Positions 4,708 to 53,840 of a DNA stretch of 64,000 bases are shown in pieces. Location: contig NC_081380.1 of NCBI RefSeq assembly GCF_030684315.1, forward strand, positions 29,323,951-29,387,950, written 5' to 3'. Numbering within the stretch: the first letter of the stretch is position 1; each line of letters begins with the position of its first letter. The stretch comes from Stegostoma tigrinum (taxonomy: Eukaryota). Under the pieces are notes generated by a model. The model was given only the letters and a program-made list of their open reading frames with translations. It was not told the origin of the DNA and ran no database searches. Made by a program: the position numbers and the translations under genes.

Positions 4708-4939
4708 TAATAGGAACTGCCGATGCTGGAGAATCTGAGACAACAAGGTGTAGAGCTGGATGAACACAGCAGGCCAAGCAGCATCAGAGGAGCAGGAAAG
4801 CTGACATTTTGGGTCTGGACCCTTCTTCAGAAATCTGAAGGAACCTGAAGAAGGGTCCGGACCCGAAACATTAGCTTTCCTAGTCCTCTGATGCTGCTTG
4901 GCCTGCTGTGTTCATCCAGCTCTACACCTTGTTATCTCA
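4708..4939. mobile_element. Fold-back PLE-terminus mini-element with inverted HHR motifs
   Basis: Arms 4737-4830 and 4845-4939 are reverse complements; flanks atgacgacagatgg (4678) / ataatgacagatgg (4939) form a degenerate 14-bp TSD. Confidence 0.85.
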
Positions 4940-7337
4940 TAATGACAGATGGATTTGCTTCCAAAATGCCTAGGAAAATTCAAAGACCAACCAGAGAATA
5001 CTTGTTCCCATAAGTAAAATTGATTGAATTTGCAAAGAGCTATTCCTCCAATTAATGGCTTTTTCGATGTTGAATCTGATGTTGATAAACTGACTGAGCT
5101 GGGATTGGGGAAGACATTTTCCAGGTGGGGGATCAGGACTGTGTTGTGGAGGGAAAGCCTTTTCCAGTGGCCATATTTAGTGGGTGGGGGTTGGGTGTAA
5201 CTTATTGTTAGGTGTCCTTTGATAAAGGAGATAGGAAGGGTGCTGTGAAAGGGGGGGTGGGTCTACCAGTGCCAAGGAAGGAATTGTCTGCGGGGGCCAG
5301 GCAGGCCATCTGCTGGAGTGTCCACTGAGGCTAGGAAGGCTATTTGCCTGTGCTTGGTGCGCGTGTGGGGGAAGTGAACAAGGTGACTCCAAGGGAGGTG
5401 GTGGGAGGAGAAAGCTGTCAGAGAAGAAAACTACAAAAGAGGGGATAGTGAGGCCACAGAGGAAGGAGCACAGTTTTAAAGTGAATAAAAGAACATACAG
5501 TTATCTCTGAGTCATGAAAACTTGAATTCATTGTGGAATCTCTCACTTAAGGCTACATATATTCAAGAACATCTATCTGGGGGAAACACTGTCATTTTTA
5601 GACAACTGTGTCAATCGCAATGCTTAAAGCTGAGATTGAGATTGGAATATTTAGGATAGTTGATAACTGCCTGAAGATCTTCCTGCTTTGTGTATACAAA
5701 ATCAAAGTGCATCATGCTATGACCTCATCAGTCTGGAATGTGTGATGGTTTTTTGTGTGTAAAAGTGCATGTCAGTTATTTATTTTTGCTAACTTTTTAA
5801 TTCCTGCTATTTGCAGCTACTTTAAATTCTGTGATGCCAACTAAATGAACACTTGCTTATATGTGACTTTTAAATTTAATGAAAGGTTGATAATTGAGGA
5901 TGTTGATGAATTCTTTCAGTTCTGCAAATGCAATTCCAAAATATTATTGCACTGTCACCTAATAACTAAGTGAGAATGACAAATGAGTTCTTGGAGATCA
6001 AGAAGTAACCTCTTAAGAAAATCTCATAAGAGGCCTTGAAAGAAAAAGTTGACCCTAGCAACAGGCCCAACATCTGAAGGCCCTCAGACTTCACTTTTAG
6101 CTACAGAAAATGAATACTGCACCATTTGCAAATTGGTCTATCTGAATTTCAGGTCCATAATGTCGGTGGTACTTTCCCAGACATAATACATTATGACAAT
6201 CTGTCACTGATTGAGGCCTGTGTTTAATTTAACTTAAACTGAAGTAATAAAATTTCACTTTGCCCCAAATCTTGATGAAAGCTCATAAAAATCAATGAAG
6301 CCCCTAACAATGTTACTTTTGTAGGATTATACCTTAATGAAATAAATCAACCTGTATGCCACATAAGGAGATTTGAATGACTATGAATAGAAAATGGACA
6401 TTCCATTGATTTATTAAGATATATAGTTGCTGGATTTTATGATCAAATATTTAGTCCTTCATTGATGCATGAAATCCACTAAAATAAAAACCCTCAGCAA
6501 ATTATTGTACATGTAAATACCATTCCCATCCACATTGAATAGCACTTAGTTTAACCCATCCAGCTAAGAAGACTGAAATTTCCTCTATGTTCTAATTTTT
6601 GAGTGATTCGTCCAGGGCAGAACGTGCATTCTCTCTACCCTTACCTTACACCCCATAACTGGGAGGTTAGGATTGTTTAATTTATCTATTGAGAAATGCA
6701 GATACAGAGGCCGTTTATGTTGGCTCGACAGAAAATTGAATGAGATATTGTGAAGGGAAGCTTGAGATGTCTTTTTTCCCCAAATTATATCATTTCCATT
6801 CTGAGTCAAAGAAACCACTGAAATTTCTTATATCTGTACCTGGGCATGCTGGATAGCATAAAGGCACCTGTCCAAGGAAATTAAAAAGGAAACTTGCTGC
6901 AATAGTCAATTGATACAGGTCTCATATTATAGCATGTCTAACATATTTGAAGAAATACATTATGGTCCTAATTACCTTCTAGTAAAAATGCAAGCAGCCC
7001 TACAAATCAGTCCCTCCAATAATCAGCATTCCTTTCTTTTTGGCATTATGTAAATTTTCTTCCAATTCCCTGACCATCTCTTCGGCTCTCAAGACTCTAG
7101 CCCCAACCTTACCACTCTTCAACTTCCTTTCCCCTTTTAAAAGCTAGCATAAACTTCACCACTTTTGAGAAACCTTTTACCACCTTTCCTAATACAATCT
7201 CCCTTGGCTTTGTGCCTGTTTCTTTATTTTGCAGTATCAGGCTTTAAGCATCATTAACATCATTACCTGCAGTAGGGACCGTCAAGTAAGTTTAATGGGA
7301 ATGTGAAGAAGAAAGCAATTGGCAGACTATTTTGACT

Positions 7338-7518
7338 GAAAGCTACAAATGCTGGAGATTACAATGGGTCAGGCAGCATCCATGGAGAGACAGCACACCA
7401 ACTTTTTGAGCCTAGGTGAATTTAAGCTTGCTCTCTCTCCATGGATGCTGCCCGGCCCGCTGTGGTCTCCAGTATTTGTTGGTTTCAGTACAGAGTCCAG
7501 CATTTGCAGCAATTTTCC
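7338..7518. mobile_element. Older fold-back PLE-terminus mini-element
   Basis: ggcagcatccatggagaga ... tctctccatggatgctgcc inverted arms; tail tccagcatttgcagc. Confidence 0.65.
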
Positions 7519-8043
7519 AGACTTTTTTTTTTCTTTTTGGGATTGACAGACCTCATGATGCCATTACTACCATTGTGCTGCTCTTATTCAGCACTCTTAC
7601 ATTCAAAGGATTGTTCTTTGTTCAACAGTTTTCCAAATTTCCTTCTAGTCATGCCTTTTCTGTGGTTAAATTTCAGACCTTTAGCTTTTTACTCCCTCAC
7701 TATCCTAAATACGCATCCCTTCATTTTAAAAAAAAATTACATCGCTGTATTTCTGCACAGATATATCATCTAAAATCTACCCAATGAACAATTTGTTGGT
7801 CACTGAATCCAATGTTTTCTCAGTAACAGGTGGAACAGTCCTGTCTCATTTTTCCTTCTTCTGAACTCCATTGGCTTTTCTTTTAGCCCTGACAAGGTTA
7901 ACAAATGAAATATTAACTGGCACTTTCTCTCAATAAATGCCATAATACATGTCCAATATTTTCTCCTATTTGAAAGCATTACTTACAGATCTGTGTGTAA
8001 GTAGGGTTGGGAAATAAGAAGTGTGAAAAAAAACTCAATACAA

Positions 8044-8250
8044 TAAAAACCAGAATATTGTGGATACTGGAGATCTAAAATAAGAGCAAAGTGCTGGAAA
8101 AACCCTGTAGATCTGGCAGCATCGGCAGGCAGAGAAACAGAGTTAACATTCTGAGTCCAATATACCTTTCTTTTGGCTCAAAACATTACCCCTCTTCCTC
8201 TTTCTACAGATTTACTAGCCCTGGGCTTCACCAGCACTTTACTGCTTGTT
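8044..8250. mobile_element. Degenerate fold-back PLE-terminus mini-element
   Basis: aaagtgctggaaaaaccc...ccagcacttt inverted ends; aacattctgagtc / ctcaaaacatt core relics. Confidence 0.5.
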
Positions 8251-8376
8251 CAAAATACCGAACTCTGAAGCATGTTACTGCAAAGCAACAATACACAACT
8301 AAACTTCATTTTTTTGCACTGTAACTTACAGGGAATCATTGTGGGGAGAAGGTAGGTACACTATGGATTATTATTG

Positions 8377-9803: not shown

Positions 9804-10023
9804 ACTGAAATATGATGATCTGTCCCAGGTATATTGTCGGAATCTATTGGCTCCAAGTGGCTGGAGTGTGTTGCAGAATGATGCCAATAGCATGGGTTAC
9901 ACCACACTCTAGCCAACTAAGTCAACAGAGATAAGGGGAACTGCAGATGCTGGAGAATCCAAGATAACAAATTGTGGGGCTGGATGAACACAGCAGGCCC
10001 AGCAGCATCTCAGGAGCACAAAA

Positions 10024-10054
10024 GCTGACGTTTCGGGCCTAGACCCTTCATCAG
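10024..10054 (-). ncRNA. Minimal type-I hammerhead ribozyme motif (intact core)
   Basis: CUGAUGA-A-GGGU(CUAG)GCCC-GAAA-CG-UC-AGC. Confidence 0.7.
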
Positions 10055-10270
10055 AAAAGGGGGATGGGGAGAGGATTCTGAAATAAATAGGGAGAGAGGA
10101 GGAGGCAGACTGAAGGTGGATAGAGGAGAAGATAGGTGGAGAGGAGAGTATGGGTGGGGAGGTAGGGAGGGAATAGGTCAGAACGGGGAGGACGGACAGG
10201 TCAAGAGGGCGGGATGAGGTCAGTAGGTAGGAAATGGAGGTGCAGCTTGAGGTGGGAGGACAGGATAGGT

Positions 10271-10459
10271 GGGAGGAAGAACAGGTTAGGCGGGAGGAAG
10301 AACAGGTTAGGCGGGAGGAAGAACAGGTTAGGCGGGAGGAAGAACAGGTTAGGCGGGAGGAAGAACAGGTTAGGCGGGAGGAAGAACAGGTTAGGCGGGA
10401 GGAAGAACAGGTTAGGCGGGAGGAAGAACAGGTTAGGCGGGAGGAAGAACAGGTTAGGC
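10271..10459. repeat. 9 perfect copies of a 21-bp unit (gggaggaagaacaggttaggc)
   Basis: Directly visible; translates as (GGRKNRL)9. Confidence 0.97.
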
Positions 10460-11603
10460 AGGCGGGGACGAGCTGGGCTGGTTTTGGGATGCAGTGGGGG
10501 GAGGGGAGATTTTGAAGCTGGTGAAATTCACATTGATACCATTGGGCTGCAGGGTTCCCAAGTGGAATATGAGTTGCTGTTCCTGCAACTGACAGGCGGC
10601 ATCATTGTGGCACTGCAGGAGGCCCGGGTTGGACATGTCGTCTAAGGAATGGGAGGGGGAGTTAAAATGGTTCACGACTGGGAGGTGCCATCGTTTACTG
10701 TGAACCGAGTGTAAGTGTTCTCCAAAGTGGTCCCCAAGCCTCCGCTTGGTTTCCCCAATGTAGAGGACGCCACACTGTGTACAACAGATGCAGTATACTA
10801 CATTGGCAGATGTGCAGGTGAACATCTGCTTGATGTGGAAAGTCATCTTAGGGCCTGGGATGGGGGTGAGAGAGGAGGTGTGGGGGTACATGTAGCACTT
10901 CCTGCGGTTGCAGGGGAAGGTGCCGGGTGTGGTGGGGTTGGAGGGCAGTGTGGAGCGGACAAGGGAGTCACGGAGAGAATGGTCTCTCCGGAAGGCAGAC
11001 AAGGGTGGGGATGGAAAAATGGCTTGGGTGGTGAGGTCGGATTGTAGATGGCGGAAGTGTCGGAGGATGATGCTTTGTATCCGGAGGTTGGTGGGGTGGT
11101 ATGTGAGGACAAGGGGGATTCTGTTTTGGCAGTTATTGCGAGGGCGGGGTGTGAAGGAGGAGATGCGGGAAATGCGGGAGACACGGTCGAGGGCATTCCC
11201 GACCACTGCAAGGGGTAAGTTGCGGCCCTTGAAGAACGAGAACATCTGGGATGTGTGCGAGTGGAATCCCTCATCCTGGGAGCAGATGCGGCTGAGGCGA
11301 AGGAATTGGGAATAGGGGATGGGATATTTGCAGGAGGGTGGGTGGGAGGAGGTGTATTCCAGGAAGCTGTGGGAGTCAGTGGGCTTGAAATGGACATCGG
11401 TTTGTTGGTGGTTGCCTGAGATGGAGACAGAAAGGTCCAGGAAGGTGAGGGATGTGTTGGAGATGGTCCAGGTGAACTTGAGGTTGGGGTGGAAGGTGTT
11501 GGTGACATGGATGAACTGTTCGAACTCCTCTTGGGAGCATGAGACGGCGCCGATACACTCATCAATGTAACGGAGGAAGAGGTGGGGTTTTGGGCCAGCG
11601 TAG
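10454..11603 (-). pseudogene. PLE RT/GIY-YIG polyprotein fragment (~380 codons, no internal stop, no N-terminus)
   Basis: The 263-aa ORF extends upstream in frame by hand translation (TYAGPKPHLFLRYIDECIG...); the catalytic YIDD reads YIDE. Confidence 0.85.
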
Positions 11604-13170
11604 GTGCCAGCATTTCCCTCAATTCACTCCTATACCTGCTGTAATAGTTCAATGAGGACTGCCTCCTGGCTGTGCTCCATGTTTGGTGTTCCACAAGCTA
11701 TATAACAGTTTACTTCCCTCTCATAGAGAGGGTGGCATCTATAGTTCCTCATGATCTGTTGTGATTTACCTAAGATTAAAAATGCTCCCCATCCTTAAAA
11801 AGGGCAGACTAGTTTGCAGATACACATTCACCTGCAATACTGAATTTTAGCAAAGCAAACCTGTCTAAAAATGTTTTCTTCCACCTCTCACATGCTCCAT
11901 TGCTGTTATTTAAGTGAAAGCAAGTGGTCTCATTTTTTTTTGTCCAGGCCTAAGTTCAATTGACAGAAAACATAGCTGGGATCCAGATCCTGTACCAGAA
12001 AAGTGACTAGGATATTACTGAGAAGTCAATGTAAAATTTTCAATATTTATTATCCAATAAGACTTGATTAACATGCAAAATATAACTGATCATTCCTCAT
12101 AACTTTAGTCATTGCAATATCACAACAGTAAAATATTCACTTTCATGCAGCATTTCCCATGATAGCTACTACTCGTTAACTGAGCTCTCATTCATAGTAA
12201 ATTCATAGATTATGTTCTGAGTTTCCAATGTGTTTCAGTATGCAATTGCTCTAGGACCACGATTAACACATTCCCATTCAAGTGAAAGCAAGCTGATGAT
12301 CACAAGCATGCTCAAGATAACATATTGGTATTTTACTACATCTCAAAAAAATTGTATAATTAGTCATCTGTGCCTATGAAATCTATTACTATGGGAGGTG
12401 TGGACTTCAACTTATTGATACTGTAGCACAGATATTTGAAACCAAGAGGTGAAGTAGGATAGGAACAATATTCATGATATTTCACCTTGTGGAAAAGTAT
12501 TTGCAGAAACTGAAAACCTGCAAAAACTAAAAATCAAACAGAAAACCAAACAATTGCAGTGGACATTCCTAACCTGAGGTCTTTGCTTGCATTATACAAC
12601 CTGCTCTCTGCTGCCAGTTTGGATCATCATAAAATTTCATTGGTGTTTAACATGAAGTCAAAGAAACAGTGGAGCAGAGGCACAGCTGAAGCTAGCCAAA
12701 CAAAACAGAAATATTTTTCTGGACACCTCCACAGGCAGAAACTGCCCAGTCATCCTTCACAGGCCAGTGATCAGGCACCTCCTGTCACACTGGATGAAGT
12801 ACAGTGGGTAGCTGGGTCTTGTTAAGAAGGGTCACTTCAACCTTGAAAAGCTCCAACTCAAACACTGTCCTTCTCAGTACTCCCACTCAATGAACAGACG
12901 ATTAGATTCAAACAAACGTAATCATACCAACATGTACAGAAATATACAACAGGGATAAATAATTGTTTGCACTTTAGCTGCTGTTTTCAGTGTCTTGTTG
13001 TCATCTTGAAGAATACTTAGTCAGAAGCAAATTAAAAAGTCAATGAGAGTTGAAATGCAACACGGGGTAATGTTGGATGGGATGCATATTATAGTTTGGG
13101 GCTCCTGATGCTCTTTTTAAGTCAGAAGTCACACAGCACCAGGTCATAGTCCAACAAGTTTATGTGAAAT

Positions 13171-13451: not shown

Positions 13452-15570
13452 GATTAGGCAAGATTTAGGGAGCATAGGAGGGGGAAGGAAACTGCAGGGG
13501 ATGGGCACATTAGAAATGTGGAGCTTATTCAAGGAAAAGCTCCTGTGTGTCCTAGATAAGTATGTACCTGTCAGGCAGGGAGGAAGCTGTAGAGTTCAGG
13601 AGCCGTGGTTTACGAAGGAGGTGGAATCTCTGGTCAAGAGGAAAAAGAAGGCTTATGTTAGGATGAGATGTGAAGGCTCAGTTAGGGCACTTGAGGGCTA
13701 CAGGTAGCCAGGAAGTACCAAAAGAGAGAACTCAGAACAGCCAGGAGGAGACATGAGAAGTTGTTGGCGGATAGGATCAGGGTAAACTCTAAGGCTTTCT
13801 ATAGGTATTTAAGGAATAAAAGAATGGCCCTAATTTTACTCTCGTCAATCAAAGATAGTAGTGGGAAGTTGTGTCTGGAGTCAGAGGAGATAGGGGAAGC
13901 ACTAAATGAATATTTTTCGACAGTATTCACTCTAGAAAATGACAATGTTGTCAAGGAAAATACTGAGATACAGGCTACTAGACTAGGTGGGATTGAGGTT
14001 CACAAGGAAGAGGTATTAGAAATCCTACAGAGTGTGAAGATAGATAAATCACCTGGGCCGGATGGGATTTATCCTAGGATCCTCTGGGAAGCCAGGAAGG
14101 AGATTGCTGAGCCTTTGGCATTGATCTTTAACTCGTCATTGTCTACAGGAATACTCCCAGAAGACTGGAGGATAGCAAATGTGGTTCCCCTGTTCAAGAA
14201 TGGGAGTAGAGACAACCCTGATAATTATAGACCAGTGAGCCTTACTTCAGTTGTTGGTAAAGTGTTGGAAAAGGTTATAAGAGATAGGATTTATAATTAT
14301 CCAGAAAAGAATAATTTGATTAGGGATAGTCAGCTTGGCTATGTGAAGGGTAGGTCGTGCCTCACAAACCTCCTTGAGTTCTTTGAGAAGGTAACCAAAC
14401 AGGTAGATGAGAGTAAACCGGTTGATGTGGTGTACATGGATTTGAGCAAGGCTTTCGATAAGGTTCCCCACAGTAGGGTATTGTACAAAATGGGGAGGAA
14501 TGGAATTGTGGGAGATACAGCAGTTTGGATCGGAAATTGGCTTGCTGAAAGAAGACAGAGGGTGGTAGTTGATGGGAAACGTTCATCCTGGAGACCAGTT
14601 ACTAGTGGTGTACCGCAAGGGTCAGTGTTCGGTCCACTGCTGTTTGTCATTTGTATAAACGACTTGGATGAGGGCGTAGAAGGATGGGTTAGTAAATTTG
14701 CAGACAACACTAAGGTCGGTGGAGTTGTGGATAGTGATGAAGGATGCTGTAGGTTACAGAGAGACATAGACAAGCTGTAGAGCTGGGCTAAAAGGTGGCA
14801 AATAGAGTTTAATGCAGAGTTTAAGTGTGAGGTGATGCACTTTGATGGGAGTAACCGGAAGGCAAAGTACTGGGCTAATGGCAAGATTCTTGGTAGTGTA
14901 GATGAGCAGAGAGATCTCGGTGTCCATGTACACAGATCCTTGAAAGTTGCCACCCAGGTTGACAGGGCTGTTAAGAAGGCATACAGTGTTTTAGCTTTTA
15001 TTAATAAAGGGATCAAGTTCCAGAACCATGAGGTTATGCTGCAGCTGCACTTGGAGTATTGTGTACAGTTCTGGTCACCGCATAATAAGAAGGATGTGGA
15101 AGCTTTGGAAAGGGTGCAGAGGAGATTTACTGGGATGTTGCCTGGTATGGAGGGAAGGTCTTACGAGGAAAGGCTGAGGGATTGGAGGCTGTTTTCATTA
15201 GAGAGAAGAAGGTTAAGAGGTGACTTAATTGAAACATATAAAATAATCAGAGGGTTAGATAGGGTGAATAGGGAGAGCCTTTTTCCTAGGATGGTGACCG
15301 CGAGCACGAGGAGGCATAGCTTTAAATTGAGGGGTGAAAGATATAGGACAGATGTCAGAGGTAGTTTCTTTACTCATAGTAGTAAGGGAATGGCACACTT
15401 TGCCTGCAACAGTAGTAGCTTCGCCAACTTTAAGTACATTTAAGTCATCATTGGATAAGCATATGGACGTACATAGAATAGTGTAGGTTAGATGGGCTTC
15501 AGATTGGTATGAAGGTTGGCACAACATCGAAGGCTGAAGGGCCTGTACTGTGCTGTAAATGTTCTATGTT
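13452..15570 (+). mobile_element. CR1 LINE, 5'-truncated, ORF2 RT pseudogene
   Basis: [34 protein letters not shown]; in-frame stops; tail gttctatgttcta; TSD ctagatga (13444, 15571). Confidence 0.96.
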
Positions 15571-18759: not shown

Positions 18760-18950
18760 TATTTTTCATCCACCCAGGCAGGCAGGTTGTGTCACAGCTT
18801 AACATCTCATTTTGAAAGGCACCGACTCTGATAAGACAGCACTCCCTTAGAACAGCGCTGAATCATCTCGTCTCAGGCTTGCTTCAGGGTGAAATCTGAG
18901 TTCGCGACTTTCTGACTGAAAATGCTGCTGACTGAGTCATGGCTGACACT
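18760..18950 (-). mobile_element. Deu-domain SINE 5' part
   Basis: ttaacatctcattttgaaagg...gacagcactccc...ttctgactgaaa...ctgagtcatggct. Confidence 0.5.
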
Positions 18951-19253
18951 TGTGCAGATGTGGCAGACTTTCGCATTACCTTTCTATTTTGTAAACGGTT
19001 TGCTAAGCGTAGCCATCTGCATCTACCGTACCGCACCCACCAGCAACTCCCCGCACCCCCCCCCGCCACCCCACCCATGCAAACGTAAGGGAAGTATGTA
19101 TGTTACCCTTAGCAGTTCATTTAAAAAATGCAAAATCCACATCTTGCCAATTTTCAGGGGGCCACTGTCAAACCCACCTACATTTCAGTGTGAAGTCAAT
19201 GAATATTACTAGTTATACCCATCCTCTGACTTCATTTAAATAAAAGAAAAATT

Positions 19254-19404
19254 GGGCTGGAAGTATTCAGCAAGCACGTCAGCAGTTGTGGAGAAATAAA
19301 CCTTTAAAATGTTTTAGGTCAATAACTTTACATCAGAACCTGAAATGGTATCTGTTTCTTTCTCCACAGATGCTGCCTGAGCTGCTAAGTATTCCCAGCA
19401 GTAT
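19254..19404. mobile_element. Old fold-back PLE-terminus element, target of a younger insertion
   Basis: gctggaagtattcagca...tgtggagaaa / tttctccacagatgctgcctgagctgctaagtattcccagca. Confidence 0.6.
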
Positions 19405-19405
19405 C

Positions 19406-19529
19406 AGAGATAATGGGAACTGCAGATGCTGGAGATTCCAAGATAATAAAATGTGAGGCTGGATGAACACAGCAGGCCAAGCAGCATCTCAGGAGCACAA
19501 AAGCTGACGTTTCGGGCCTAGACCCTTCA
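19406..19529 (-). mobile_element. Young PLE 3' terminus truncated inside the HHR core
   Basis: Near-identical to the terminus at 22817; perfect 13-bp TSD tcccagcagtatc (19393, 19530). Confidence 0.9.
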
Positions 19530-19635
19530 TCCCAGCAGTATCTTGCTTTTGCCTTCCTCATGGCGATCTTACATTAGGCAAAGACTTTCCCCTCTTAGAA
19601 TATGAAAGAAAAGAAATTAAACTAAAAGGAAATTG

Positions 19636-19867
19636 AGAGATAACAAGGTGCAGAGCTGGATGAACACAGCAGGTCAAGCAGCATCAGAGGAGCAGGAAAG
19701 CTGACATTTTGGGCCTCGAACCTTCTTCAGAAAAAAATTCTGAAGGAGGATCTAGGCCCAAAATGTCAGCTTTCCTGCTCTTCTGATGCTGCTTGGCCTG
19801 CTGTGTTCATCCAGCTCTGCACCTTGTTATCTCAGATTCTCCAGCATCTGCAGCTCCTGCTATCTCT
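19636..19867. mobile_element. Fold-back PLE-terminus mini-element
   Basis: Arms 19637-19732 and 19738-19833 inverted around an A-rich spacer; TSD aactaaaaggaaa / aactaagaggaaa. Confidence 0.88.
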
Positions 19868-20567
19868 GCAACTAAGAGGAAAGATGAGTTAGCAGGCTGT
19901 GGAAAGAGGTGATAGACAAGCCTTTGTATGGATAATGAAACTTTGAATGTGCTCTGTTCTCACGTCACATTAAGTACATAGAATAAGTACCGTTCTGCCA
20001 AAGGTTTCAGTCTGATAACAACCTGCTGTCTGACTGTTGTTCATATTATAATGAAGCAACTTGAAAAGGCAATTCAGACTATTCAATCCATTTTGATCAC
20101 AAAGGTCGAATTGACCCCAAGTGGATCATTTTTTTTTCTTTGAACAGCTTCAGCTTCAAGCTTTTAAGCCTCTTCCTTCTATGAGACAATAAACTTGGTT
20201 GCTTCCTTTGTGAATTCTTAATCGGGCTCTATATAACAGCTGCACTTCATAATCGTTCATCTCCAAATGTAACACAGTGTTTATTCTTTATGATATGTTC
20301 AATTCTGAATTTCTTCAGCTTACAATCATGCTGGAAGGCACTTCTAGTGTGGGTAGTGTTTCTACCTCTAAGCCAGAAGGCCCTGGTTCAAGTCTCACTG
20401 GTTCAGAGGTGTCTCAAAACATGTTTGAACAGGTTGAGTAAAATATTTATAATCACACCCTTCTTTTGCTGGCACTTGCTTAGATTTATATTGTGCATTT
20501 ACTATCTCCTTAATTACTCATGAATAGCCTTACTGTCCCAGAAAAAAAATTCTTCTAATATTTTAAG

Positions 20568-21982
20568 GAGTGTTAAATTTCTCCATTGTAATAAAAACTA
20601 TGGAAAATTTGTTCTTTAAAAAAATTCTTAAGACATGTTTAGATTGATCTTAATCAAACTTGTTTGCCCCAATTATTTGTCACTCACTATTACATTTTAA
20701 TTAAAAGTGAATGCTTCCTTGGGTTTTTACTTTCTGATTTGCTCTGCTAGAAGACTTCAATGAGATTGGTTCATAACATCATTATTGCTACTTAGAGATT
20801 CCCTTGACCTAACACCAGTTTTAAACTGGTAGGGAGAGAAACGCAAGACACAGTAATGACATATCTTTGTGGGCAAATTTTTTTAAGGCCAGTTATGAAC
20901 ACAAACATCAGTTGCTAACCAGAATGTGCATGCACATTGTTATCTCTGCTATCAGGAGTCAAAGAGTGGAGCTGGATGAACACAGCAGGCTAAGCAGCAT
21001 CTTAGGAGGACAATAGAACATAGAACATAGAACAGTACAGCACAGAACAGGCCCTTCAGCCCACAATGTTGTGCCGACCATTGATCCTCATGTATGCACC
21101 CTCAAATTTCTGTGACCATATACATGTCCAGCAGTCTCTTAAATGACCCCAATGACCTTGCTTCCACAACTGCTGCTGGCAACGCATTCCATGCTCTCAC
21201 AACTCTCTGCGTAAAGAACCTGCCTCTGACATCCCCTCTATACTTTCCACCAACCAGCTTAAAACTATGACCCCTCGTGCTAGCCATTTCTGCCCTGGGA
21301 AATAGTCTCTGGCTATCAACTCTATCTATGCCTCTCATTATCTTGTATACCTCAATTAGGTCCCCTCTCCTCCTCCTTTTCTCCAATGAAAAGAGACCGA
21401 GCTCAGTCAACCTCTCTTCATAAGATAAGCCCTCCAGTCCAGGCAGCATCCTGGTAAACCTCCTCTGAACCCTCTCCAAAGCATCCACATCTTTCCTATA
21501 ATAGGGCGCCCAGAACTGGACGCAGTATTCCAAGTGCGGTCTAACCAAAGTTTTATAAAGCTGCAACAAGATCTCACGACTCTTAAACTCAATCCCCCTG
21601 TTAATGAAAGCCAAAACACCATATGCTTTCTTAACAACCCTGTCCACTTGGGTGGCCATTCTAAGGGATCTATGTATCTGCACACCAAGATCCCTCTGGG
21701 CCTAGGCCTTTCTGACAACTTTTGTTTTCCTTCCTTTATCGCTGAGGAAAGTAGACACAGAAAATAGATGACAGAATAGGTTACTTAGCCTAGCGAGCCT
21801 GCTCTGTCATTCAAGTTGATCGTGGCTGATGGTCCAACTCTGTCTTGATCTATTTGGCATGCACAGGTAGGCTGTGTGTGTGTTTTTATTTGATTGAGAC
21901 AGATCTAAACAGGTCATAAGAATTTTTTTTAAAAGAAGAAACTGTCCATCATTTTTATTACAATGGAGAAATTTGACACCCC
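20568..21982. mobile_element. Putative non-autonomous DNA transposon relic with ~90-bp TIRs, containing nested PLE and CR1 insertions
   Basis: gtgttaaatttctccattgtaataaaaa...aatcaaa (20570-20658) is the diverged reverse complement of 21889-21980. Confidence 0.6.
21013..21697 (-). mobile_element. Young CR1 3' fragment inserted into a PLE terminus
   Basis: Stop-free 193-aa ORF (LVRPHLEYCVQFW, RGDLIEVYK, FTQRVVRAWNALP); (catagaa)n tail; PLE terminus sequence on both sides (20957-21012, 21698-21715). Confidence 0.93.
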
Positions 21983-22035
21983 GAGGCTGGTTCACAGGAC
22001 TGATTAGAGAATCTGGGTAATAGCTAGATCATCTT

Positions 22036-22130
22036 TTCTGAAGAAGGGTCCAGACCCGAAATGTCAGCTTTCCAGCTCCTCTGATGCTAATTGGCCTGCT
22101 ATGTTCATTCAGCTCTACATCTTGTTATAT
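22036..22130 (+). mobile_element. Solo PLE terminus with HHR motif
   Basis: ctgaagaagggtccagacccgaaatgtcagc at 22038; TSD ctagatcat (22024, 22131). Confidence 0.8.
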
Positions 22131-22335
22131 CTAGATCATTTTGGTGCTGTGCAAAGTTTTTTCTTAAAATGGAGTAGTCAGTTTGTCACTGGATGAAAAG
22201 GGATCCTTTCCAGCAAAAAACCATAGCATCATGTGAATATGAGAACAAAGCAAATGAACGTTTTGCCCATTATTGAGCTTGCCCATTCCAGCATCTTGCG
22301 CTGATTGGATCTGCAACTGGGCATCAAATTGGTCA

Positions 22336-22607
22336 TGATAATAAAATGTGAGGCTGGATGAACACAGCAGGCCAAGCAGCATCTCAGGAGCACAAAAGCT
22401 GACGTTTCAGGCCTAGGCCCTTCATCAGAGAGCACAAAAGCTGACGTTTCGGGCCTAGACCCTTCATCAGAGAGCACCTCTCTGATGAAGGGTCTAGGCC
22501 CGAAACGTCAGCTTTTGTGCTCCTGAGATGCTGCTTGGCCTGCTGTGTTCATCCAGCCTCACATTTTATTATCTTGGATTCTCCAGCATCTGCAGTTCCC
22601 ACTATCT
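22336..22607. mobile_element. Fold-back PLE mini-element with three HHR motifs (two tandem on -, one on +)
   Basis: HHRs at 22398-22428(-), 22440-22470(-), 22482-22512(+); perfect 14-bp TSD catcaaattggtca (22322, 22608). Confidence 0.92.
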
Positions 22608-22816
22608 CATCAAATTGGTCAGCTACTTTCCTGCCTTTCACTAGAATGGTGTAAAAATGACGTGGAAACATTAAGCATATTTTTAAAAGGATTAGATTTT
22701 CTTCCTACAAATTCTGCCCACTTGCAATCACATACTTTCAAATAGCTGCATCCCACTATTTTTTTTCCAACCTTCAGGAGGTCCATTTACCGCCTACAAG
22801 TACAAGTGAAAACCTG

Positions 22817-23637
22817 AGATAATGGGAACTGCAGATGCTGGAGAATTCCAAGATAATAAAATGTGAGGCTGGATGAACACAGCAGGCCAAGCAGCATCTC
22901 AGGAGCACAAAAGCTGACGTTTCGGGCCTAGACCCTTCATCAGAGAGGGGGATGGGGAGAGGGAACTGGAATGAATAGGGAGAGAGGGGGAGGCGGACCG
23001 AAGATGGAGAGTAAAGAAGATAGGTGGAGAGAGTATAGGTGGGGAGGTAGGGAGGGGATAGGTCAGTCCAGGGAAGACGGACAGGTCAAGGAGGTGGGAT
23101 GAGGCTAGTAGGTAGATGGGGGTGCGGCTTGGGGTGGGAGGAAGGGATGGGTGAGAGGAAGAACCGGTTAGGGAGGCAGAGACAGGTTGGACTGGTTTTG
23201 GGATGCAGTGGGTGGGGGGGGAAGAGCTGGGCTGGTTGTGTTACACAACCAGCCCAGCTCTTCCCCCTCCCGCCCCACCCGCTGCATCCAAAAACCAGTC
23301 CAACCTGTCTCTGCCTCCCTAACCGGTTCTTCCTCTCACCCATCCCTTCCTCCCACCCCAAGCCGCACCCCCATCTACCTACTAGCCTCATCCCACCTCC
23401 TTGACCTGTCCGTCTTCCCTGGACTGACCTATCCCCTCCCTACCTCCCCACCTATACTCTCTCCACCTATCTTCTTTACTCTCCATCTTCGGTCCGCCTC
23501 CCCCTCTCTCCCTATTCATTCCAGTTCCCTCTCCCCATCCCCCTCTCTGATGAAGGGTCTAGGCCCAAAACGTCAGCTTTTGTGCTCCTGAGATGCTGCT
23601 GGGCCTGCTGTGTTCATCCAGCCTCACATTTTATTAT
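22817..23637. mobile_element. ~820-bp near-perfect palindrome of PLE 3' region
   Basis: Centre ggttgtgt-t-acacaacc at 23242; mirror ORFs 23086-23391(-) and 23099-23404(+); perfect 14-bp TSD caagtgaaaacctg (22803, 23638). Confidence 0.95.
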
Positions 23638-24312
23638 CAAGTGAAAACCTGTCCTGGAAAACCTGTAGGTATTGCACTAATTATACAGCTGTTCCAACAG
23701 TTTATTTGGCTACACTGACAATCTACTTTTGTGATTCAATTGGATGCATTAGTTGCAAATTGATACTCCAGTCCCAATAAAATGACAAATCATAAATGAG
23801 CACCTGCATTGTGCTAAAAGCTGGTTCCATTATACATTGCATGAATCACTCATTTAAACAACCTGTAAAAGTCTGTGTGAGAATTTGCTTTGTGCCAGCA
23901 GTTTTCGCAATAGTTCAGATATTCTCACCTCTTAAATGCCCTTAAAACAATCGCCAGCTTAACTGAGAGTTGAACTACTTAAAGCAAAGTTATTGCAATG
24001 TAAAACACTACAAATGTAAACAAAACAAATATTTCTGACAAACACCCGAATCTTGTGGTGCATAACAAGTGGCTTGAAAAATAAACGTGAATGCAGAAAA
24101 CTCAGCTATGTTAAAAGGGAAACATCCCAGTACTGGATCAGCAAATCCACTGCAATCATTGGATCTATTGTGAAAAACCAAATAACAAGGAAAAATGACA
24201 GCTCGGTGTAGCATCTGCCAAAAAAGAACAAAAGACCAAGAAAAACATATGTGAAGTCACAGATCACGTATCTAAACAGTTGGTGAAATGCTATGGGTAC
24301 TCACTAGGTGAC

Positions 24313-45127: not shown

Positions 45128-45554
45128 GTATATAAAACCTTTCTCAGTTAAGTCTATCGTGTATTATCAAGACTTTCTCTGCCTCATCAAATGCATGTCT
45201 ACTTTAATTGAACCTATATTTTAAATATTGTCACGATGGTGATAAAAAGGGGTTATGAATTTTCATCTGATTCTAATACCCAAGGTGTCTTAAATAATCT
45301 CCTTAAAACTTCTGAGTGAATGAGGGAATTTATTAATTACTAGCCCTGAGAAAAAATAAATAACTACAACAAACACAGATATAAAAGTTTAATGATGGTG
45401 AGAGTGTGTGGTACAAAAAAGACAGAGAATAGGCCGTTTAAAAAGTTTTGAGCTCTTAAGATGACAGGTTTTAACCTGATGTGATTTAAATCCTCAGCAA
45501 CAGTTAAATTTTGATATCTTTGGAGTTCCCAGCGAATGGACACCAAACAGAAAT

Positions 45555-45687: not shown

Positions 45688-45737
<50 letters not shown>

Positions 45738-45755: not shown

Positions 45756-47709
45756 ATTCCCCTATCCTTCATTAAATATAGATCACTTGTGTATTCCTAC
45801 ATCAGACTTCATTCTATTTCTTGCTGAATAAACTGCAGACAAAAGACATACAGATTGGAGTTCAAAGCCTTTTAATAATGAGAATAAATTGCCTCAGTCT
45901 GGGTGGTATTTATTGATAATTCCATGAGCTTGGTTCAGTCTGGTCAGGGGACAGTACAGCCACCTTAATCAGTGTTTTCCATTTTAAAAAATATGGCACC
46001 CAAAGTATTAAAATCAGATGTTGAAATTTGTAAATTGATGGTCCATTTTTACCACCAGCATGACAATATTAAAATATAGGTTCGATCATAGTAAAACATG
46101 CACTTGATGAGGCAGAGAACATCACGATGGACTTAATTGACAAAATGTTTTAATATATTGACTTTTATAAAGTAATCCATGTTAAAGAGTTATGGCTGCA
46201 GTAAATGGATTCCACAGATAGTGATGCTAACCTTTACAATTGAGTAGCTAAGAACTGCAGATCCTGTTTGAAACAAAAACAGAAAATGTTGAAAACACAA
46301 AGATCAGTAAGAACATGTGGAGAGAGAAAATACATGTAATGTTTCAGGTCAATTATCCTTTGCTTCTATATCTTTTTTCGCTGACACTTGTTGAATGAGG
46401 TGCTTAAGTAATTCATGACTGCATTTGCACTACAAATCGCCAAAATGTCTTTCATCCAATGTCAAAACGTTATTTTTTAAATCTGACATTCTCACTTCTC
46501 TGTTGCAGAGATAGTCCCTGACTCCAGCATTACAGAATTTGGATGTAATTAATCACATTGGACTGATACTGCAATCAGAGTGGACTCAAGTTACAACTGC
46601 ATATTGGCAAGACTATGAATTTGTTTCAGAAAGTCAATGAATGTTAGATTTGAATAGAGAAGATCAATATTTTGAGCCATAAGACAAGCTTTTCATGGTT
46701 AATGCACAGTTAATAGTCTAGCTGCAATTCATATGACACTTCAAGATCTAGTCAAATATAACCATTTTCATCCAAGAGTTATTTGGCCTTCCTCCCAGTT
46801 TCTGTTCTGTCATTATCGTCCACGTGGCCACTGCTCCACCTCTGTTACAGACTTGATGGGTTGAATGGCGTCCTTAGGAACTGTAAAATTCTATGATTCT
46901 ATTTTATTTTCAACTCCAAATCTAGCGGTTCCACTTACTTGGATGTATTTACTGTGCCAGATTTCTCTGCTTGCCTATCAACATTTCGGCTGCAGCCTCT
47001 GAATTTTTTTGCACATCCCAAATAAACTTTGCCCAAGTTCTTGCTTGGAATATTCGCTGCCAAAACCCCTGCACTGTTTGGTTTATTATTTAGGGTTTAA
47101 TCTATTCACTAGACCTTCCCTTTCAAGACTTTCCCTTTCAAGAATTTTCTCTCCCGTTCAACTACAAAGATTTCTTCATACAGATCAGTTGATTTTTTTT
47201 GCTGCTGTCTCTGGTGTACTGGTTTTCAACCTGTTTCCTCTCCCACAGGTATACTATGAAATCTAATGAGACATACTTGTTTCTGTGGGGTTTCTGAATT
47301 TCTGGAGGCCTCAGGAGTAGGATGGTCCTTTTAGGAATCTGAAGTGAACGGATGGAAAATTTCATGCCTTTCTTTAAATCTAGCTTGGTGATAAAAAGTT
47401 CTGATAATACAGTTAAGCTCTTCTTTTACATTGGAATAAAACCATGGGTTAAGTGAAAGAAAAATCATTTATTTCCTTAGGATCACAATGTCCTGGAGCT
47501 GTTTTAGGGGGTATGCATTATTTAATAGCCCTGAAAGACAGGAACAAAATATCGCCAGCTCCACATGTTATTCACATGTTATCCCACTCTTAATAGAACT
47601 CAAAGAAGTGGAAAGAAATGGGGTCAAGTCTATAATGAAAGCAGTCAGCTGTAGCATTCTTGATGTCTCCTATCAGTCAAGAAAAAGCACAAGAACTGAG
47701 AGAGATGGG

Positions 47710-47848
47710 AGATAATGGGAACTGCAGATGCTGAAGAATCTGAGACAACAAAGTGTGGAGCTGGACGAACACAGCAGGCCAAGCAGCATCTGCTCCTAAG
47801 ATGCTACTTGGCCTGCTGTCTTCATCCAGCTCCACGCTCGGTTGTCCC
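47710..47848. mobile_element. Fold-back PLE mini-element with centre (both HHRs) deleted
   Basis: cagcaggccaagcagcatct-gctcct-aagatgctacttggcctgctg. Confidence 0.8.
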
Positions 47849-47961
47849 TAAAACCGAGACAGAATTTGTTTGTCTCCTGCCCTTTATTCACCTGGACATA
47901 GTGTAATGATCAATAAAGAAAAATACAAATACAACACTTCTGATACAACAATCAAGAAAAA

Positions 47962-48220
47962 GGGCCTGCTCTCTTATTAGAGAGACATGACTGGTGGTGG
48001 TTTAACCAGAGGGTCACCGCATCTCAGGCTAAGGGAGATTTTGAAAAGTAGAGTCCTTCATGGTAACCTCAACCGTTGCGGGGTTTAAACCCATGCTGTT
48101 GACACAATTCTGCATTTCAAACTTCACAACCCTGGTTAGCTCAGTAAAATTGGATGGCTGGTTTGAGATGCAGAGTGGGTTTAATTCCTGCACATCTTAT
48201 CATGAAGGATTCTTTTTGTG
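47962..48220. mobile_element. Head-to-head pair of a tRNA-derived SINE
   Basis: Minus copy ...tccttcatggtaacctcaacc...aaaccc...ctgcatttcaaac; plus copy ggttagctcag...gtttgagatgcagagtgggtttaattcc...catgaaggattct. Confidence 0.55.
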
Positions 48221-48689
48221 CCATAAATTGTCCTATTGGACAATGGTGACTTTACTTATTTACTGACCAAGAAAATCAGTTGGCAAATCACCTACAGAGG
48301 ATAGAATGCAGTAAATAATGTAGATTTATAATTCCAATAGCACTGCCTTTGTGACCAGTAAGAACTTGGAATGTTTAAGTCATTAAAAGAAGTGACCAAA
48401 ATATAATTGAGGTGGAATTTTACAATTTGCAGTTCGTGTTTCATGGGCCTTGTCTGCAATGACTCAATGATTTTACCCATGCAATCTTCTACTCTTCACC
48501 TCTTTAACTGTGTATCTGGGCTAAAGAGTTCCTTTCACAGGAATCACACAGCAAAGAGGCAGTGTACTCATCACTGTTGGGCCCTTTTGGCTTTCACATC
48601 CCTGGCACCATATTTAAAAGCCCAGCTGCACACCATGTCAGATGATGCAAGCCAAGAACTTACACACCCACACCATTATTAACAAAAGC

Positions 48690-48912
48690 ATGGCCTTAAG
48701 GGAAGGGAAGTTTAGTCTCCATTTTTTGGATAATGGCCTGGCAGACAGGATATTAGAAAGGAGGGCAGTCCTTTTTCTTGTGGACCTCCACAGGAGACGG
48801 CAACACCAGGCCAAGCCAGCCCTGGCACAAACTGCTGCCCAGGTTAGTGCTATGAAGCCAAACATCCACCCATGCAGGAAAGAAGGTCAACGATCTTGTG
48901 CATGATGTAGGA
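48690..48912 (+). pseudogene. Myb/SANT-like DNA-binding ORF relic of a PIF/Harbinger transposon
   Basis: HFLDNGLADRILERRAVLF...AKPALAQTAAQVSA...CRK/KVNDL (frameshift), followed by a gtaagt donor-like site. Confidence 0.6.
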
Positions 48913-50522: not shown

Positions 50523-50622
50523 AACAAAAACAGAAGTTGCTGGAAAAGCTCAGCAGGTCTGGCAGCATCGAAGATGAAAAAGAAATCAGTTAACATTTCG
50601 GGTCAGGTGACCCTTCCTCAGT
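50523..50622 (-). mobile_element. Older PLE terminus with HHR motif
   Basis: CUGAGGA-A-GGGUC(ACCU)GACCC-GAAAUGUU; TSD aatatacaat (50513, 50623). Confidence 0.75.
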
Positions 50623-51811
50623 AATATACAATTGCATAGTCCCCTTCTCCATCCTCAACTTTCTTGTTTTATTCCTGTAGTTCCTCAGTCCTAAACCTAT
50701 TTATTCATGCTTCATGTATGAACAGAAAGCAAGAGGTACTTGGCAATTTTGAAGCAGGACATTCAAACAATATACTTTGGCAAACTGGGAATAGTGCTGA
50801 TGAGAGGAAAAGCCTGTTTGAGAACCAAACCTACTGAGCTGTTGTAAAACAGCAAAATCAGACCGTGCTATCAAGAAGTAGAAAAAGACCTTGTGAGGCT
50901 AAAGACTACATCAGTGTGAATGACGGCTTGACAAGATTACACAAAACACAATAGGCCTCTCTAATCCCGACAAAGTTTTTCAACTAGCCTTTTTTGTTCC
51001 AGCTTTCCAATCAATTGTTTCTGTCATCTTCACAAGATGGAATTTGCACAAAGTGTAAAATTGGAAGTACCATGTGACGTTTACGCTCAAGTTTGAAACA
51101 AAAATGCATCAAGATCAAAGACTATGAATAGATCATTGAAGTCTTGCAAAATCCAGTTCATCATTGAAAGGAGATATAAAAGAAGTTGTTTAAGTAGCCT
51201 GATGACTACAAGACAACTGTCCGATCTTTTAGGGGTCATCACTTACTTTATCTAAATGTCAGTACATAGAAGGGACCTTCTCTCCCCATTTCCAGGGTAC
51301 CACGGGGTGTCCTGATTGCTGCCAATCCCAACATCTCCCCACCACCCTGTTCTTATGGTCAGCAGCAATCATCCACTCCATATCATGGTAAAAGTGTCCC
51401 TTATTATCTTTCATAAATTGTTCACCCTGACTGCAGACAAGGAAGGAACCCCAACCAGCATTTCAGGAGAGTTGTGGCCGAGAAACTCACAAGAAGCCTA
51501 CAGCTGTAGAGGAAACTCAGTCAGTCTTCGAGAGAATATCTGTATGCTGAGAATCAAATGCAAAGGATCATAATTTATTTCAAAAACATACATGCAACCA
51601 ATTAACAGGGAATCACATTTCTATGGTGGTTATACGATCATTTACACAGGCATAGCATTGCTAAACTGTCTTCATTGTTAAAATACTGACCAAGGGCAGA
51701 ACGAGGTGTACTCTATTACTAAGTAGACTAAGAAGAGCTTGTAATCTGTTTGTAATGTGTAGGTGTGTGGTCTACCGGTAGCTATATGGACATTTGTGTA
51801 ACTACTGGTGT

Positions 51812-51940
51812 GAGAGATAGGAGGAACTGCAGATACTGGAGAATCTGAGATAACAAGGTGTAGAGCTGGATGAACACAGCAGGCCAAGCAGCAGAGGAGC
51901 AGGAAAGCTGATGTTTTGGGCCTAGACCCTTCTTCAGAAA
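51812..51940 (-). mobile_element. Solo PLE terminus (mutated HHR)
   Basis: Matches the 4708/19636 subfamily. Confidence 0.85.
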
Positions 51941-52469
51941 AAATGAGAGTTCTGTTTATCATCTGGATCAGCTGATAAAATGTTTATTCTAAGCCATACA
52001 TAGACAATAGTAGAGTAGAATTTTGCATAGCATGTGTCTGATCCAGAAAAGCATAATATTAAATTCAGATATTTGAGTGTGTTGATTATTTCTCAATGGT
52101 CTCATTTCCAAACTGTCAAGTAACCTATCAAATGTATAAGACATCATCTTCTACAACCAAGGCAGCAATTGTCAGTGGTTGATTTAACACACAGAACTGA
52201 AACCCAGCCTTTTTTTCTGCTCTTCACCATCTGCACAACTATTTGACTGAGGACTGAGATCACTATTTTGTAGTCAGTGGAAAATCTGACCACTTATTCC
52301 TTCTAACACACCAACCAAAACTCTGACTGAGATCAGCGATCTCAACAAAGATCAAGGATGGAGGCTTAAGCATTTGCGGGCTCTGTGTTGACCAGTCATG
52401 CACTTTCCAACCTAACAAAATGAGTAAAATTACAAATAAATAAACAACACATCCCACTTCCTACAGACA

Positions 52470-53566
52470 AAGAGGGTGGCCATGGGTACCTGCATGGGCC
52501 CAAGCTATGCCTGCCTCTTTGTAGGTTACGTGGAACAGTCCCTCTTCCGCACCTACACAGGCCCCAAACCCCACCTCTTCCTTGGTACACCGATGGCTAT
52601 ATCAGCGCCGCCTCTTGCTCCCCCAAGGAGCTCGAACAGTTCATCCACCTCACCAACGCCTTCTACCCCAACCTCAAGTTCACCTGGGCCATCTCTAACA
52701 CATCCCTCACCTTCCTGGACCTCTCAGTCTCCATCTCAGGTAACCAGCTAGAAACTGATGTCCATTTCAAGCCCACTGGCTCCCACAGCTACCTAGAATA
52801 CACCTCCTCCCACCCATCCTCCTGCAAAAATTCAATCCCCTATTCCCAATTCCTCCGCTGCCGCCGCATCTGCTCCCAGGATGAGGCATTCCATTCCCGC
52901 ACATCCCAGATGTCCACGTTCTTCAAGGACCGCAACTTTCCCCCCACAGTGGTCGAGAACGCCCTTGACCGCGTCTCCCACATTCTCATCAACACATCCC
53001 TCACACCCCGCCACAACCGGCCCCAGAGGATCCCCCTCGTTCTTACATACCACCCCACCAACCTCCAGATACAACGCATCATCCTTCGACACTTCTGCCA
53101 TCACTTCACAAGCTTCAAAATCTCCCCTTCCCCTACTGCATCCCAAAACCAGCCCAGCTTGTTCCCCTCCTCTCACTGCATCCCAAAACCAGCCCACCCT
53201 GTCTCCACTTCCCTAACCTGTTCTTCTTCACCCATCCCTTCCAATTACCTGAAGCCGCACCTCCATTTCCTACCTACCACCTCATCTCGCCTCGTTGACC
53301 TGTCCATTTTCCCTGGACTGACCTATCCCCTCCCTACCTCCTCACCTATACTCTCCTCTCTACCTATCTTCTTTTCTCTCCATCTTCAGTCCACCTCCCC
53401 CTCTCTCCCTATTTATTCCTGTTCTCTCTCCCCATACCCCTCTCTGATGAAGGGTCTACGCCCGAAACGTCAGCTTTTGTGCTCGAGATGCTGCTTGGCC
53501 TGTTGTGTTCATCCTGCTCCACACTTTGTTATCTTGGATTCTCCAGCATCTGCAGTTCCCATTATC
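52470..53566 (+). mobile_element. PLE family 1 fragment: RT motifs, GIY-YIG deleted, intact 3' terminus
   Basis: AMGTCMGPSYACLFVGYVE; junction RHFCH|HFTSFKIS at ~53100; intact HHR at 53444-53474. Confidence 0.93.
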
Positions 53567-53659
53567 GCATTATAACTTACTGCCTCATTTTCAAATACTA
53601 TGAATAAATTATGATTTTACGTAAAAGGGGAAATATTTGCCAAATATTCTTTGGAGAAA

Positions 53660-53840
53660 GCAAGAACTGCAGATGCTAGAGTCAGAGACAATGCAGTGTG
53701 GAGATGGAAGAACACAGCAGGCCAGGCAGCATGAGAGGCGCAGGAAAGGGACACTTGGCCCTGACCTAAAACGTCAACTTTCCTGCTCCTCTGATGCTGC
53801 CTGGCCTGCTGTGTTCCTCCAGTTTCACATTGTGTTATCT
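53660..53840. mobile_element. Fold-back PLE mini-element (centre collapsed)
   Basis: gaacacagcaggccaggcagcat / atgctgcctggcctgctgtgttc; TSD-like tgccaaatattctttg / tgccaaacatactttg. Confidence 0.8.

Follow-up and report, generated by a model that had tools for sequence, protein, structure and literature searches.

We have analyzed a 64,000-nt stretch of the genome of the shark Stegostoma tigrinum (contig NC_081380.1, positions 29,323,951 to 29,387,950; hereafter the window), for which an original prediction, made from the letters of the DNA, listed nine short palindromic elements built of inverted ends of Penelope-like elements (PLEs). They are called here by position (4708, 7338, 8044, 19254, 19636, 22336, 22817, 47710 and 53660). 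The window palindromes are real insertions, and such fold-backs are a by-product of a known retroelement class, not a new class of mobile element. Very probably they arise de novo. At a probability of roughly 70% we favour an account in which both nicked strands of a target would prime reverse transcription on one capped sense RNA and the two cDNAs would be end-joined, with the smallest elements reflecting run-off at the 5' end of that RNA. These smallest elements, in which both arms are confined to the pseudo-long terminal repeat (pLTR) of the PLE, are termed minis below.

Architecture of the fold-backs and their parent element

A census of 12 arbitrary 50-kb blocks (600 kb of unselected DNA, window excluded) from the sampled genome (3.2 Gb, 835 contigs) yielded 40 head-to-head pairs of arms, 26 of them minis, and 51 unpaired, or solo, arms, with spans of 87 to 3930 bp. 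A protein search of the same genome gave 229,634 first-look candidates; many of the 129 that were scored are arranged as minus/plus pairs, and 15 of 20 fetched loci are coding fold-backs of up to ~5 kb. In the selected coding fold-backs the arms reach 2.5 kb and are 98-100% identical. Because the census spans grade into these coding fold-backs, the minis are one end of a size continuum. Extrapolation to the genome gives, as a rough figure, ~140,000 minis and ~210,000 fold-backs. The fold-backs show the features of PLE complex insertions: an inverted 5'-truncated copy, a tail at one end and a target-site duplication (TSD). The TSD is about 14 bp long (range 10-18 bp), and at a score of at least 10 it is found in 24 of the 40 unselected fold-backs versus none of 200 mismatched flank pairs.

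The layout of the parent element is seen at locus L092, where a 1103-amino-acid frame (L092:3421-6729, stop to stop) lies between two copies of the pLTR with tail. The frame matches RVT_1 (E 2e-5) and GIY-YIG (E 0.004), both under the Pfam curated cut-offs, and contains DKG and YIDD motifs. The linker between its reverse transcriptase (RT) and endonuclease (EN) includes CNRRKCYTC, a CX4CxxC arrangement that falls within the CX2-5CxxC finger of Neptune and Nematis elements as defined in PMC8557442. Cysteines within the GIY-YIG domain, VVYCIHCTRCGFLYIG, agree with the feature that the same paper gives for endonuclease-bearing (EN+) PLEs, the histidines being left unassigned. Young parent copies conform to the minimal hammerhead ribozyme (HHR) descriptor, and their pLTR forms a partial tandem with tail, as in canonical EN+ PLEs. 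The parent is a canonical EN+ PLE and, by the criteria of PMC8557442, of Neptune or Nematis type; we take it to be an active element, probably of Neptune type. Across the census blocks and the window, the parent family makes up ~9% of the first 464 kb sampled, with 1.5-16% per block. At L093:6072-6243 a perfect mini fold-back, with its centre 46 nt into the pLTR, heads a near-full-length coding copy; this copy has tails at both 5' arms and none at its 3' end.

A tail of ~35 nt lies on exactly one arm in 38 of the 40 unselected pairs, the other two being tail-less (p ~7e-10 versus independent choice). The same one-sided pattern is found in 24 of 24 loci picked by similarity to the 19636 element, in 15 of 15 long young elements and in all six window elements of the parent family. 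Solo arms occur both with the tail (17) and without it (34). In PMC11167929 the tail corresponds to the segment that separates two RT start sites, so that the two arms would use different, coupled start sites. Among unselected pairs the tail-less arm reaches further 5' in 23, the tail arm in 9, and the two are equal in 6 (p 0.02). The 40 junctions comprise overlaps of 1-14 nt (21), blunt joints (3) and joints with 1-48 extra nt (16).

The two arms of one element also resemble each other more closely than the arms of different elements. Across the 15 long young elements, both arms carry the variant in 23 private and 6 shared cases, and 3 cases are mixed; the arms differ by 0.24% within elements versus 0.72% between them; for the 36 of 40 unselected pairs with enough overlap the figures are 7.4% and 13.0%. 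In loci L091-L108 sense-strand changes of T>C or A>C account for many of the private variants seen on both arms.

Private variants common to both arms would equally be expected if a single cDNA, or an antisense RNA, folded back and was copied, with the endonuclease later trimming the tail of one arm. PMC3846280 proposes an antisense-RNA route for inverted copies, PMC8557442 credits the tail to endonuclease resolution of an intermediate, and the microhomology at 21 of 40 junctions fits as well. However, a copied arm cannot outlast its template at either end, so that the tail arm would have to be at least as long as its partner, yet the tail-less arm is the longer in 23 of 32 pairs and a further trimming step would be needed. 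In addition, 19 of 40 junctions are blunt or contain inserts, and an antisense template leaves unexplained the sense-strand boundary and the extra G described below, both of which extend to solo arms. We consider copying of one strand by itself improbable.

The 5' boundary and the hammerhead ribozymes

The 5' ends of the arms are concentrated at one boundary. Of 131 arm starts, 35 lie from 10 nt before the HHR to 3 nt into it, a 14-nt interval with a density of 2.5 per nt. A further 43 fall within the following 57 nt (4-60 nt inside the pLTR), and the 89 nt upstream contain 12 (0.135 per nt). In 39 of 45 long arms the sequence TATTTAT, or a one-base variant of it, precedes the HHR by 33-35 nt, which places the boundary ~31 nt after the box. 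This is the usual spacing between a TATA box and a transcription start, although TATTTAT deviates from the perfect consensus. For the young subfamily, the first 100 of 12,119 matches have 71 G, 23 T and 6 A at the position preceding the boundary (native C excluded); at a control two bases upstream the counts are 12 G, 60 A and 28 T (first 100 of 3,935 matches). Judged by eye, the G class adjoins, per 100 cases, the opposite arm in ~63 and unique flank in ~23, with ~8 being mutated long copies and ~6 sense repeats. For L1, PMC11702581 explains the extra G at the 5' junctions of full-length copies by the cap. Ribozyme cleavage was rejected as the main source of the RNA 5' end, as the starts peak ~30 nt upstream of the cut site and few fall at it.

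In the account favoured here, each fold-back would form in a single integration event. The GIY-YIG endonuclease would nick both target strands ~14 bp apart, leaving the observed TSD. Each 3' end would then prime the RT on the same sense RNA but from a different position, the first from the end of the ~35-nt tail and the second from the pLTR end just before it; the tail pattern and the shared template are as described above, and a single RNA molecule bound by a dimer would produce them. The two cDNAs would halt independently, and their 3' ends would be connected through end joining, using microhomology or small inserts, a pathway that would leave the junctions we observe and yield head-to-head arms of unequal length. 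The priming site is present twice in the RNA. Use of the 3' copy would give long arms; priming at the copy near the RNA 5' end would give arms of at most ~130 nt, which would run off at a capped start 3-4 nt before the hammerhead and often copy the cap as G, in keeping with the boundary and the G excess. The template of a mini could be a full-length transcript or a short RNA from the pLTR of a truncated copy. The minis are without the upstream box and probably dead on arrival, and their ribozymes are passengers.

Two-strand priming might also be combined with a different origin of the short arms, namely a strong stop of the RT, at the hammerhead or at a C-rich tract, or later deletion of the centre. 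Long palindromes are prone to deletion; 43 of the 131 arms start 4-60 nt inside the pLTR, off the boundary, and the G signal is absent from the A subfamily (see below). Against this stand the sharp drop in start density upstream of the boundary and its fixed distance from TATTTAT, the G-specific excess of the young subfamily, which is also present beside unique flank, and the occurrence of the same boundary in solo arms, which are not palindromes. A strong stop or deletion thus seems an improbable source of the short arms.

Several observations weigh against the priming of both strands on one capped RNA. The start site of the RNA and its cap are deduced from DNA alone. In each base count the 100 matches were taken in order from one contig rather than at random, and in the ~63 per 100 G cases that adjoin the opposite arm the G can belong to that arm itself. 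The older A subfamily shows no excess of G at the predicted base (24 G, 50 A and 26 T in the first 100), and the centres contain variable A/T runs in place of G; A-type arm starts may be rounded by the short reference. Tails are present on both arms at L136, one of 13 junction-selected loci, 25 of 93 subfamily-type variants are confined to one arm, and 16 of the 40 unselected fold-backs lack a TSD at the cut-off. The shared variants could also result from gene conversion between the arms or from two RNAs of one source locus. Among published systems, the start site in PMC11167929 was observed in vitro, without a difference between strands, and for a Poseidon rather than a Neptune element; and the promoter of Drosophila virilis Penelope is internal and TATA-less (PMC2377424).

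The original prediction placed an HHR on each strand of the elements, which did not prove general. An intact minimal core on both strands is present only in the 22336 element, 22817 has one on a single strand, and the other seven have none; the arms of 47710 and 53660 begin inside or after the ribozyme. Among the 26 unselected minis none has two intact HHRs, 3 have one and 23 have none. The intact copies of the 22336 element are as follows.

22482..22508, plus strand: minimal type I hammerhead motif with intact core (helix II of 4-5 bp, helix I of 2 bp)
22470-22444 and 22428-22402, minus strand: two further intact hammerhead copies

Predicted folding of a read-through RNA of this element suggests that opening the hairpin for the ribozyme fold would cost ~40 kcal/mol. 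An Rfam scan of the window gave 80 matches up to E 1, none of them to a hammerhead and none at the gathering score; all but two were to microRNA (miRNA) models, below their cut-offs.

The tail-less arm of the 22336 element carries a 42-nt tandem duplication of the hammerhead segment (22390-22473). Head-to-tail repeats of this kind, of 2 or 3 units, are also found at L146:~700-800, L146:~6780-6910 and L147:~400-480, and the tandem has five exact matches genome-wide. At 22336 and at three places of set C12 the repeats end on the same base every time. To judge from these sequences, the cDNA apparently halts at the boundary, jumps back 42 nt and halts again, and the tandem units are possible seeds of non-LTR retrozymes. 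The two fold-backs of L146, ~6 kb apart, agree in their centre and in the presence of the rare 42-nt tandem, but not in their flanks; this neighbouring pair may derive from one unusual template or one burst.

Fold-backs and PLE copies in the window

Inverted arms were recovered by repeat search or self-BLAST at eight of the nine places; the diverged arms of 8044 were seen by eye and by predicted folding only (-51 and -83 kcal/mol, one per strand). Contigs from four public sequencing runs, including those of a relative and of a second sample of the same species, were compared with window 18900-24200. The elements, solo arms and parent PLE copies of the window are listed below, with the strand where a feature has one.

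4677..4952: fold-back (4708) of the older A subfamily; tail-bearing arm 4708-4831 (minus), short insert, tail-less arm 4845-4939 (plus); 15-bp flanks with 2 mismatches (4677-4691 and 4938-4952); HHR cores decayed
7335..7522: fold-back (7338) of another older PLE-like family; arms 7335-7395 and 7429-7489, an extension of the right arm being taken by eye as tail; weak 11-bp flank with 1 mismatch; HHR core absent; family without a linked coding copy
8044..8252: old fold-back, diverged, assigned to a further PLE-like family and matching the 19254 arm at 72%; no TSD by flank comparison; no HHR core
19254..19401: old fold-back, also in the relative; no TSD by flank comparison; right end broken by the 19407 solo insertion; HHR not intact
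19407..19531, minus strand: young solo pLTR with tail; perfect 13-bp TSD (19393-19405 and 19530-19542); insertion absent from the relative
19620..19882: fold-back (19636) of the A subfamily; tail-less arm 19637-19731 (minus), A7T2 centre, tail-bearing arm 19739-19868 (plus); 13-bp TSD with 1 mismatch; both HHR cores decayed; element absent from the relative
22034..22131, plus strand: solo tail-less arm starting at the common 5' boundary just before the HHR; imperfect direct flanks
22322..22621: young fold-back (22336); tail-less arm 22336-22473 (minus), 3-nt linker, tail-bearing arm 22477-22608 (plus); perfect 14-bp TSD (22322-22335 and 22608-22621)
22803..23651: young longer fold-back (22817); both arms begin ~296 nt upstream of the HHR and the left one carries the tail; perfect 14-bp TSD (22803-22816 and 23638-23651); HHR intact on the minus strand only; element absent from the relative
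47709..47849: mini fold-back (47710); both arms begin downstream of the HHR and the left one carries the tail; weak 12-bp flank with 2 mismatches
51813..51939, minus strand: solo A-subfamily arm with tail, starting at the common 5' boundary
53638..53857: old mini fold-back (53660), element 53654-53843; left arm with the tail; direct flanks of 16 bp, 2 mismatches; HHR core absent
9928..11607, minus strand: 5'-truncated coding copy of the parent PLE (RT end, linker, GIY-YIG, pLTR, tail)
52452..53569, plus strand: 5'-truncated, internally deleted parent PLE copy with pLTR and tail
57537..58698, minus strand: 5'-truncated parent PLE copy with tail-less end

The direct flanks of 13-16 bp claimed for five elements were recovered at 4708, 19636, 22336, 22817 and 53660, and are perfect, as claimed, at 22336 and 22817. 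The PLE origin of the elements also holds, in that their arms match the 3' pLTR of elements with RT and GIY-YIG domains. The link to the traced parent and its coding copies covers six of the nine; 7338, 8044 and 19254 belong to older look-alike families. The description of the elements as only two inverted PLE 3' termini fails for 22817, whose arms of ~390 nt extend far beyond the pLTR on its upstream side. The PLE fragments of the window had no Pfam match at E 0.001; weak matches were obtained from a longer copy at a looser cut-off.

A contig of the relative links 22324 straight to 22611 and thus retains exactly one copy of the 14-bp TSD, a clean empty site for 22336. The same contig has 35 nt in place of 22811-23652, where 7 would be expected, so that 22817 is absent but its empty site is not clean. 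In place of 19367-19869 the relative has 117 nt, with most of 19254 kept and both the 19407 solo arm and 19636 missing. A contig of the second sample crosses the centre of the 19254 element; none of the contig pieces listed for that sample, which has 298,648 more, does so for 19636, 22336 or 22817. In the contigs of the two further organisms the orthologous flanks were too short to judge. The single-TSD empty site that the original prediction called for is present at 22336, and the absences in the relative, together with the same-species contig across 19254, identify the window fold-backs as insertions. Assembly fold-back artefacts are ruled out by the asymmetric ends, the TSDs, the divergence between arms, which reaches ~25% in old copies, and the empty sites of the relative.

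Two interpretations had been offered at the outset, inverted PLE integration or self-propagating units resembling miniature inverted-repeat transposable elements (MITEs) or retrozymes, and only the former is supported. In the suggested check of centre junctions, the pairs of arm starts differ in 26 of 26 unselected minis, and the 22817 junction is unique genome-wide. The 22336 junction is found at 13 loci, with the tail on the left in 7, on the right in 5 and on both sides in 1, in several subfamily backgrounds (two of the ends assigned by eye); the mixture of tail sides and subfamilies points to recurrence, and one master element behind them was rejected. This centre would recur because the run-off point is fixed. 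The 19636 centre is found at 5 loci whose copies are otherwise divergent.

MITEs are homogeneous copies with a common internal sequence, a fixed TSD and terminal inverted repeats as in a DNA transposase partner. The fold-backs do not fit this description, given their differing arm starts, 23 distinct centre strings among 24 loci, asymmetric ends and TSDs of 10-18 bp; their arms match the pLTR of an RT-GIY-YIG element rather than transposon ends, no transposase search having been made. Nor are they non-LTR retrozymes, head-to-tail tandems with at least two intact sense HHRs, the exceptions being the tandem units of 22336 and C12. It is highly improbable that some minis are transcribed and re-inserted as non-autonomous units like MITEs, short interspersed elements or retrozymes. 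Such spread could explain the junctions shared by 13 and by 5 loci and the depth of some contig joints, at tens of copies or more; the 42-nt tandem HHR units exist, and an internal promoter as in D. virilis Penelope (PMC2377424) might allow a mini to be transcribed. But the loci sharing a junction differ in tail side and subfamily, the arm starts of the 26 unselected minis all differ and none has two intact HHRs, and the TSD, although ~14 bp, is variable. Moreover, the hairpin sequesters the ribozyme, and the outer ends coincide with two RT start sites, both of which a single pass through a hairpin would not be expected to yield.

Other features of the window touch the fold-backs less directly. 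A run of ~18 G (4690-4707) separates the left TSD copy of the 4708 element from its tail end. In the PLE copy at 9928-11607, a 21-nt unit downstream of the endonuclease frame is repeated ~9 times (10310-10510, minus strand), and related short repeats are present inside the open reading frame (ORF) of the young parent family. Long AT-rich terminal inverted repeats at 20567-20658 and 21889-21982 probably bound a non-autonomous DNA element; in the relative its inside is ~770 nt shorter and lacks the PLE piece and the long interspersed element (LINE) fragment at 20940-21709. Inverted repeats at 45166-45265 and 46029-46128, ~900 bp apart around a CT-rich stretch, are probably a DNA-transposon remnant. 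LINE fragments, which from their motifs we take to be CR1-like, are located at 13695-15443 (plus; RVT_1 E 7e-26) and 21020-21701 (minus). A Pfam search with ten other ORFs of the window gave no useful family.

Relation to known systems and significance

The original prediction had also suggested that fold-backs of this kind might be an undescribed class. Their layout has been published: complex insertions of canonical EN+ PLEs (PMC3846280, PMC8557442, PMC2377424) have the same head-to-head inverted 5'-truncated copy, the 30-40-bp tail at one end, the TSD, the HHR in the pLTR and the RT-GIY-YIG ORF, and PMC3846280 illustrates the inverted pLTR with a tail on one copy in rotifers. The shark fold-backs differ in that 26 of 40 consist of the pLTR only, in their number (~1e5 copies by extrapolation) and in a TSD of ~14 bp versus 8-10 bp in rotifers. 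Minimal HHRs on opposite strands, 100-700 bp apart, are reported from Schistosoma and ascribed to truncated PLEs (PMC4209133); this arrangement occupies one sentence there, without analysis of structure or origin. The origin of PLE inverted repeats and of the one-sided tail is called unresolved in PMC3846280, PMC8557442 and PMC11167929.

A biochemical parallel is the anole Poseidon element PAc (PMC11167929), whose protein nicks and extends both strands. RT begins at two adjacent internal positions that delimit the tail, and the protein is modelled as a dimer. When priming takes place near the pLTR-ORF junction, the RNA 5' end determines how long the products are, as proposed here. The anole element belongs to a different clade (Poseidon, not Neptune); inverted products and the coupling of start sites lie outside that study, and its later steps are unvalidated. 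L1 twin priming (PMC11702581) shares priming of the second end on the same RNA, a discrete TSD, an end-joined inversion and an extra 5' G, but its second primer anneals internally and the segments barely overlap. Here both cDNAs would start at the 3' pLTR end, so that full overlap of the arms would form a palindrome. Non-LTR retrozymes (10.64898/2026.07.22.740005) are likewise non-coding, derived from PLE pLTRs and equipped with type I HHRs, and the 42-nt tandems resemble their seed; they are arranged head-to-tail with at least two sense HHRs, whereas the fold-backs are head-to-head with at most one, except 22336. Shark PLE fold-backs and cap-copying by PLEs were not found in the literature searched, which largely excluded subscription papers and did not include supplements. 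Nor were tail coupling, arm-length asymmetry, a shared template or 5' run-off with G found in the excerpts searched; supplements may hold examples.

Because the family is young, with arms 99-100% identical, and abundant, competing models of PLE integration can be counted from DNA alone, and the counts of fold-backs favour two-strand priming on one sense RNA over antisense self-priming. A bolder proposal, to which we give somewhat less than even odds, is that ~1e5 natural footprints record an undescribed step of PLE integration, in which an asymmetric RT-endonuclease dimer would serve both nicked strands from a single capped sense RNA at two fixed sites. Its action at the 5' pLTR would copy to the cap, the cap-copied ends could anneal into a perfect palindrome, and occasional jumps from the RNA 5' end back into the RNA itself would produce tandem hammerheads and possibly give birth to non-LTR retrozymes. 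The two-strand priming model yields exact predictions for the existing in vitro PLE system. Genome annotation could mistake the 1-2 x 1e5 palindromes for MITEs or miRNA hairpins, and copies that are polymorphic could be used as insertion markers.

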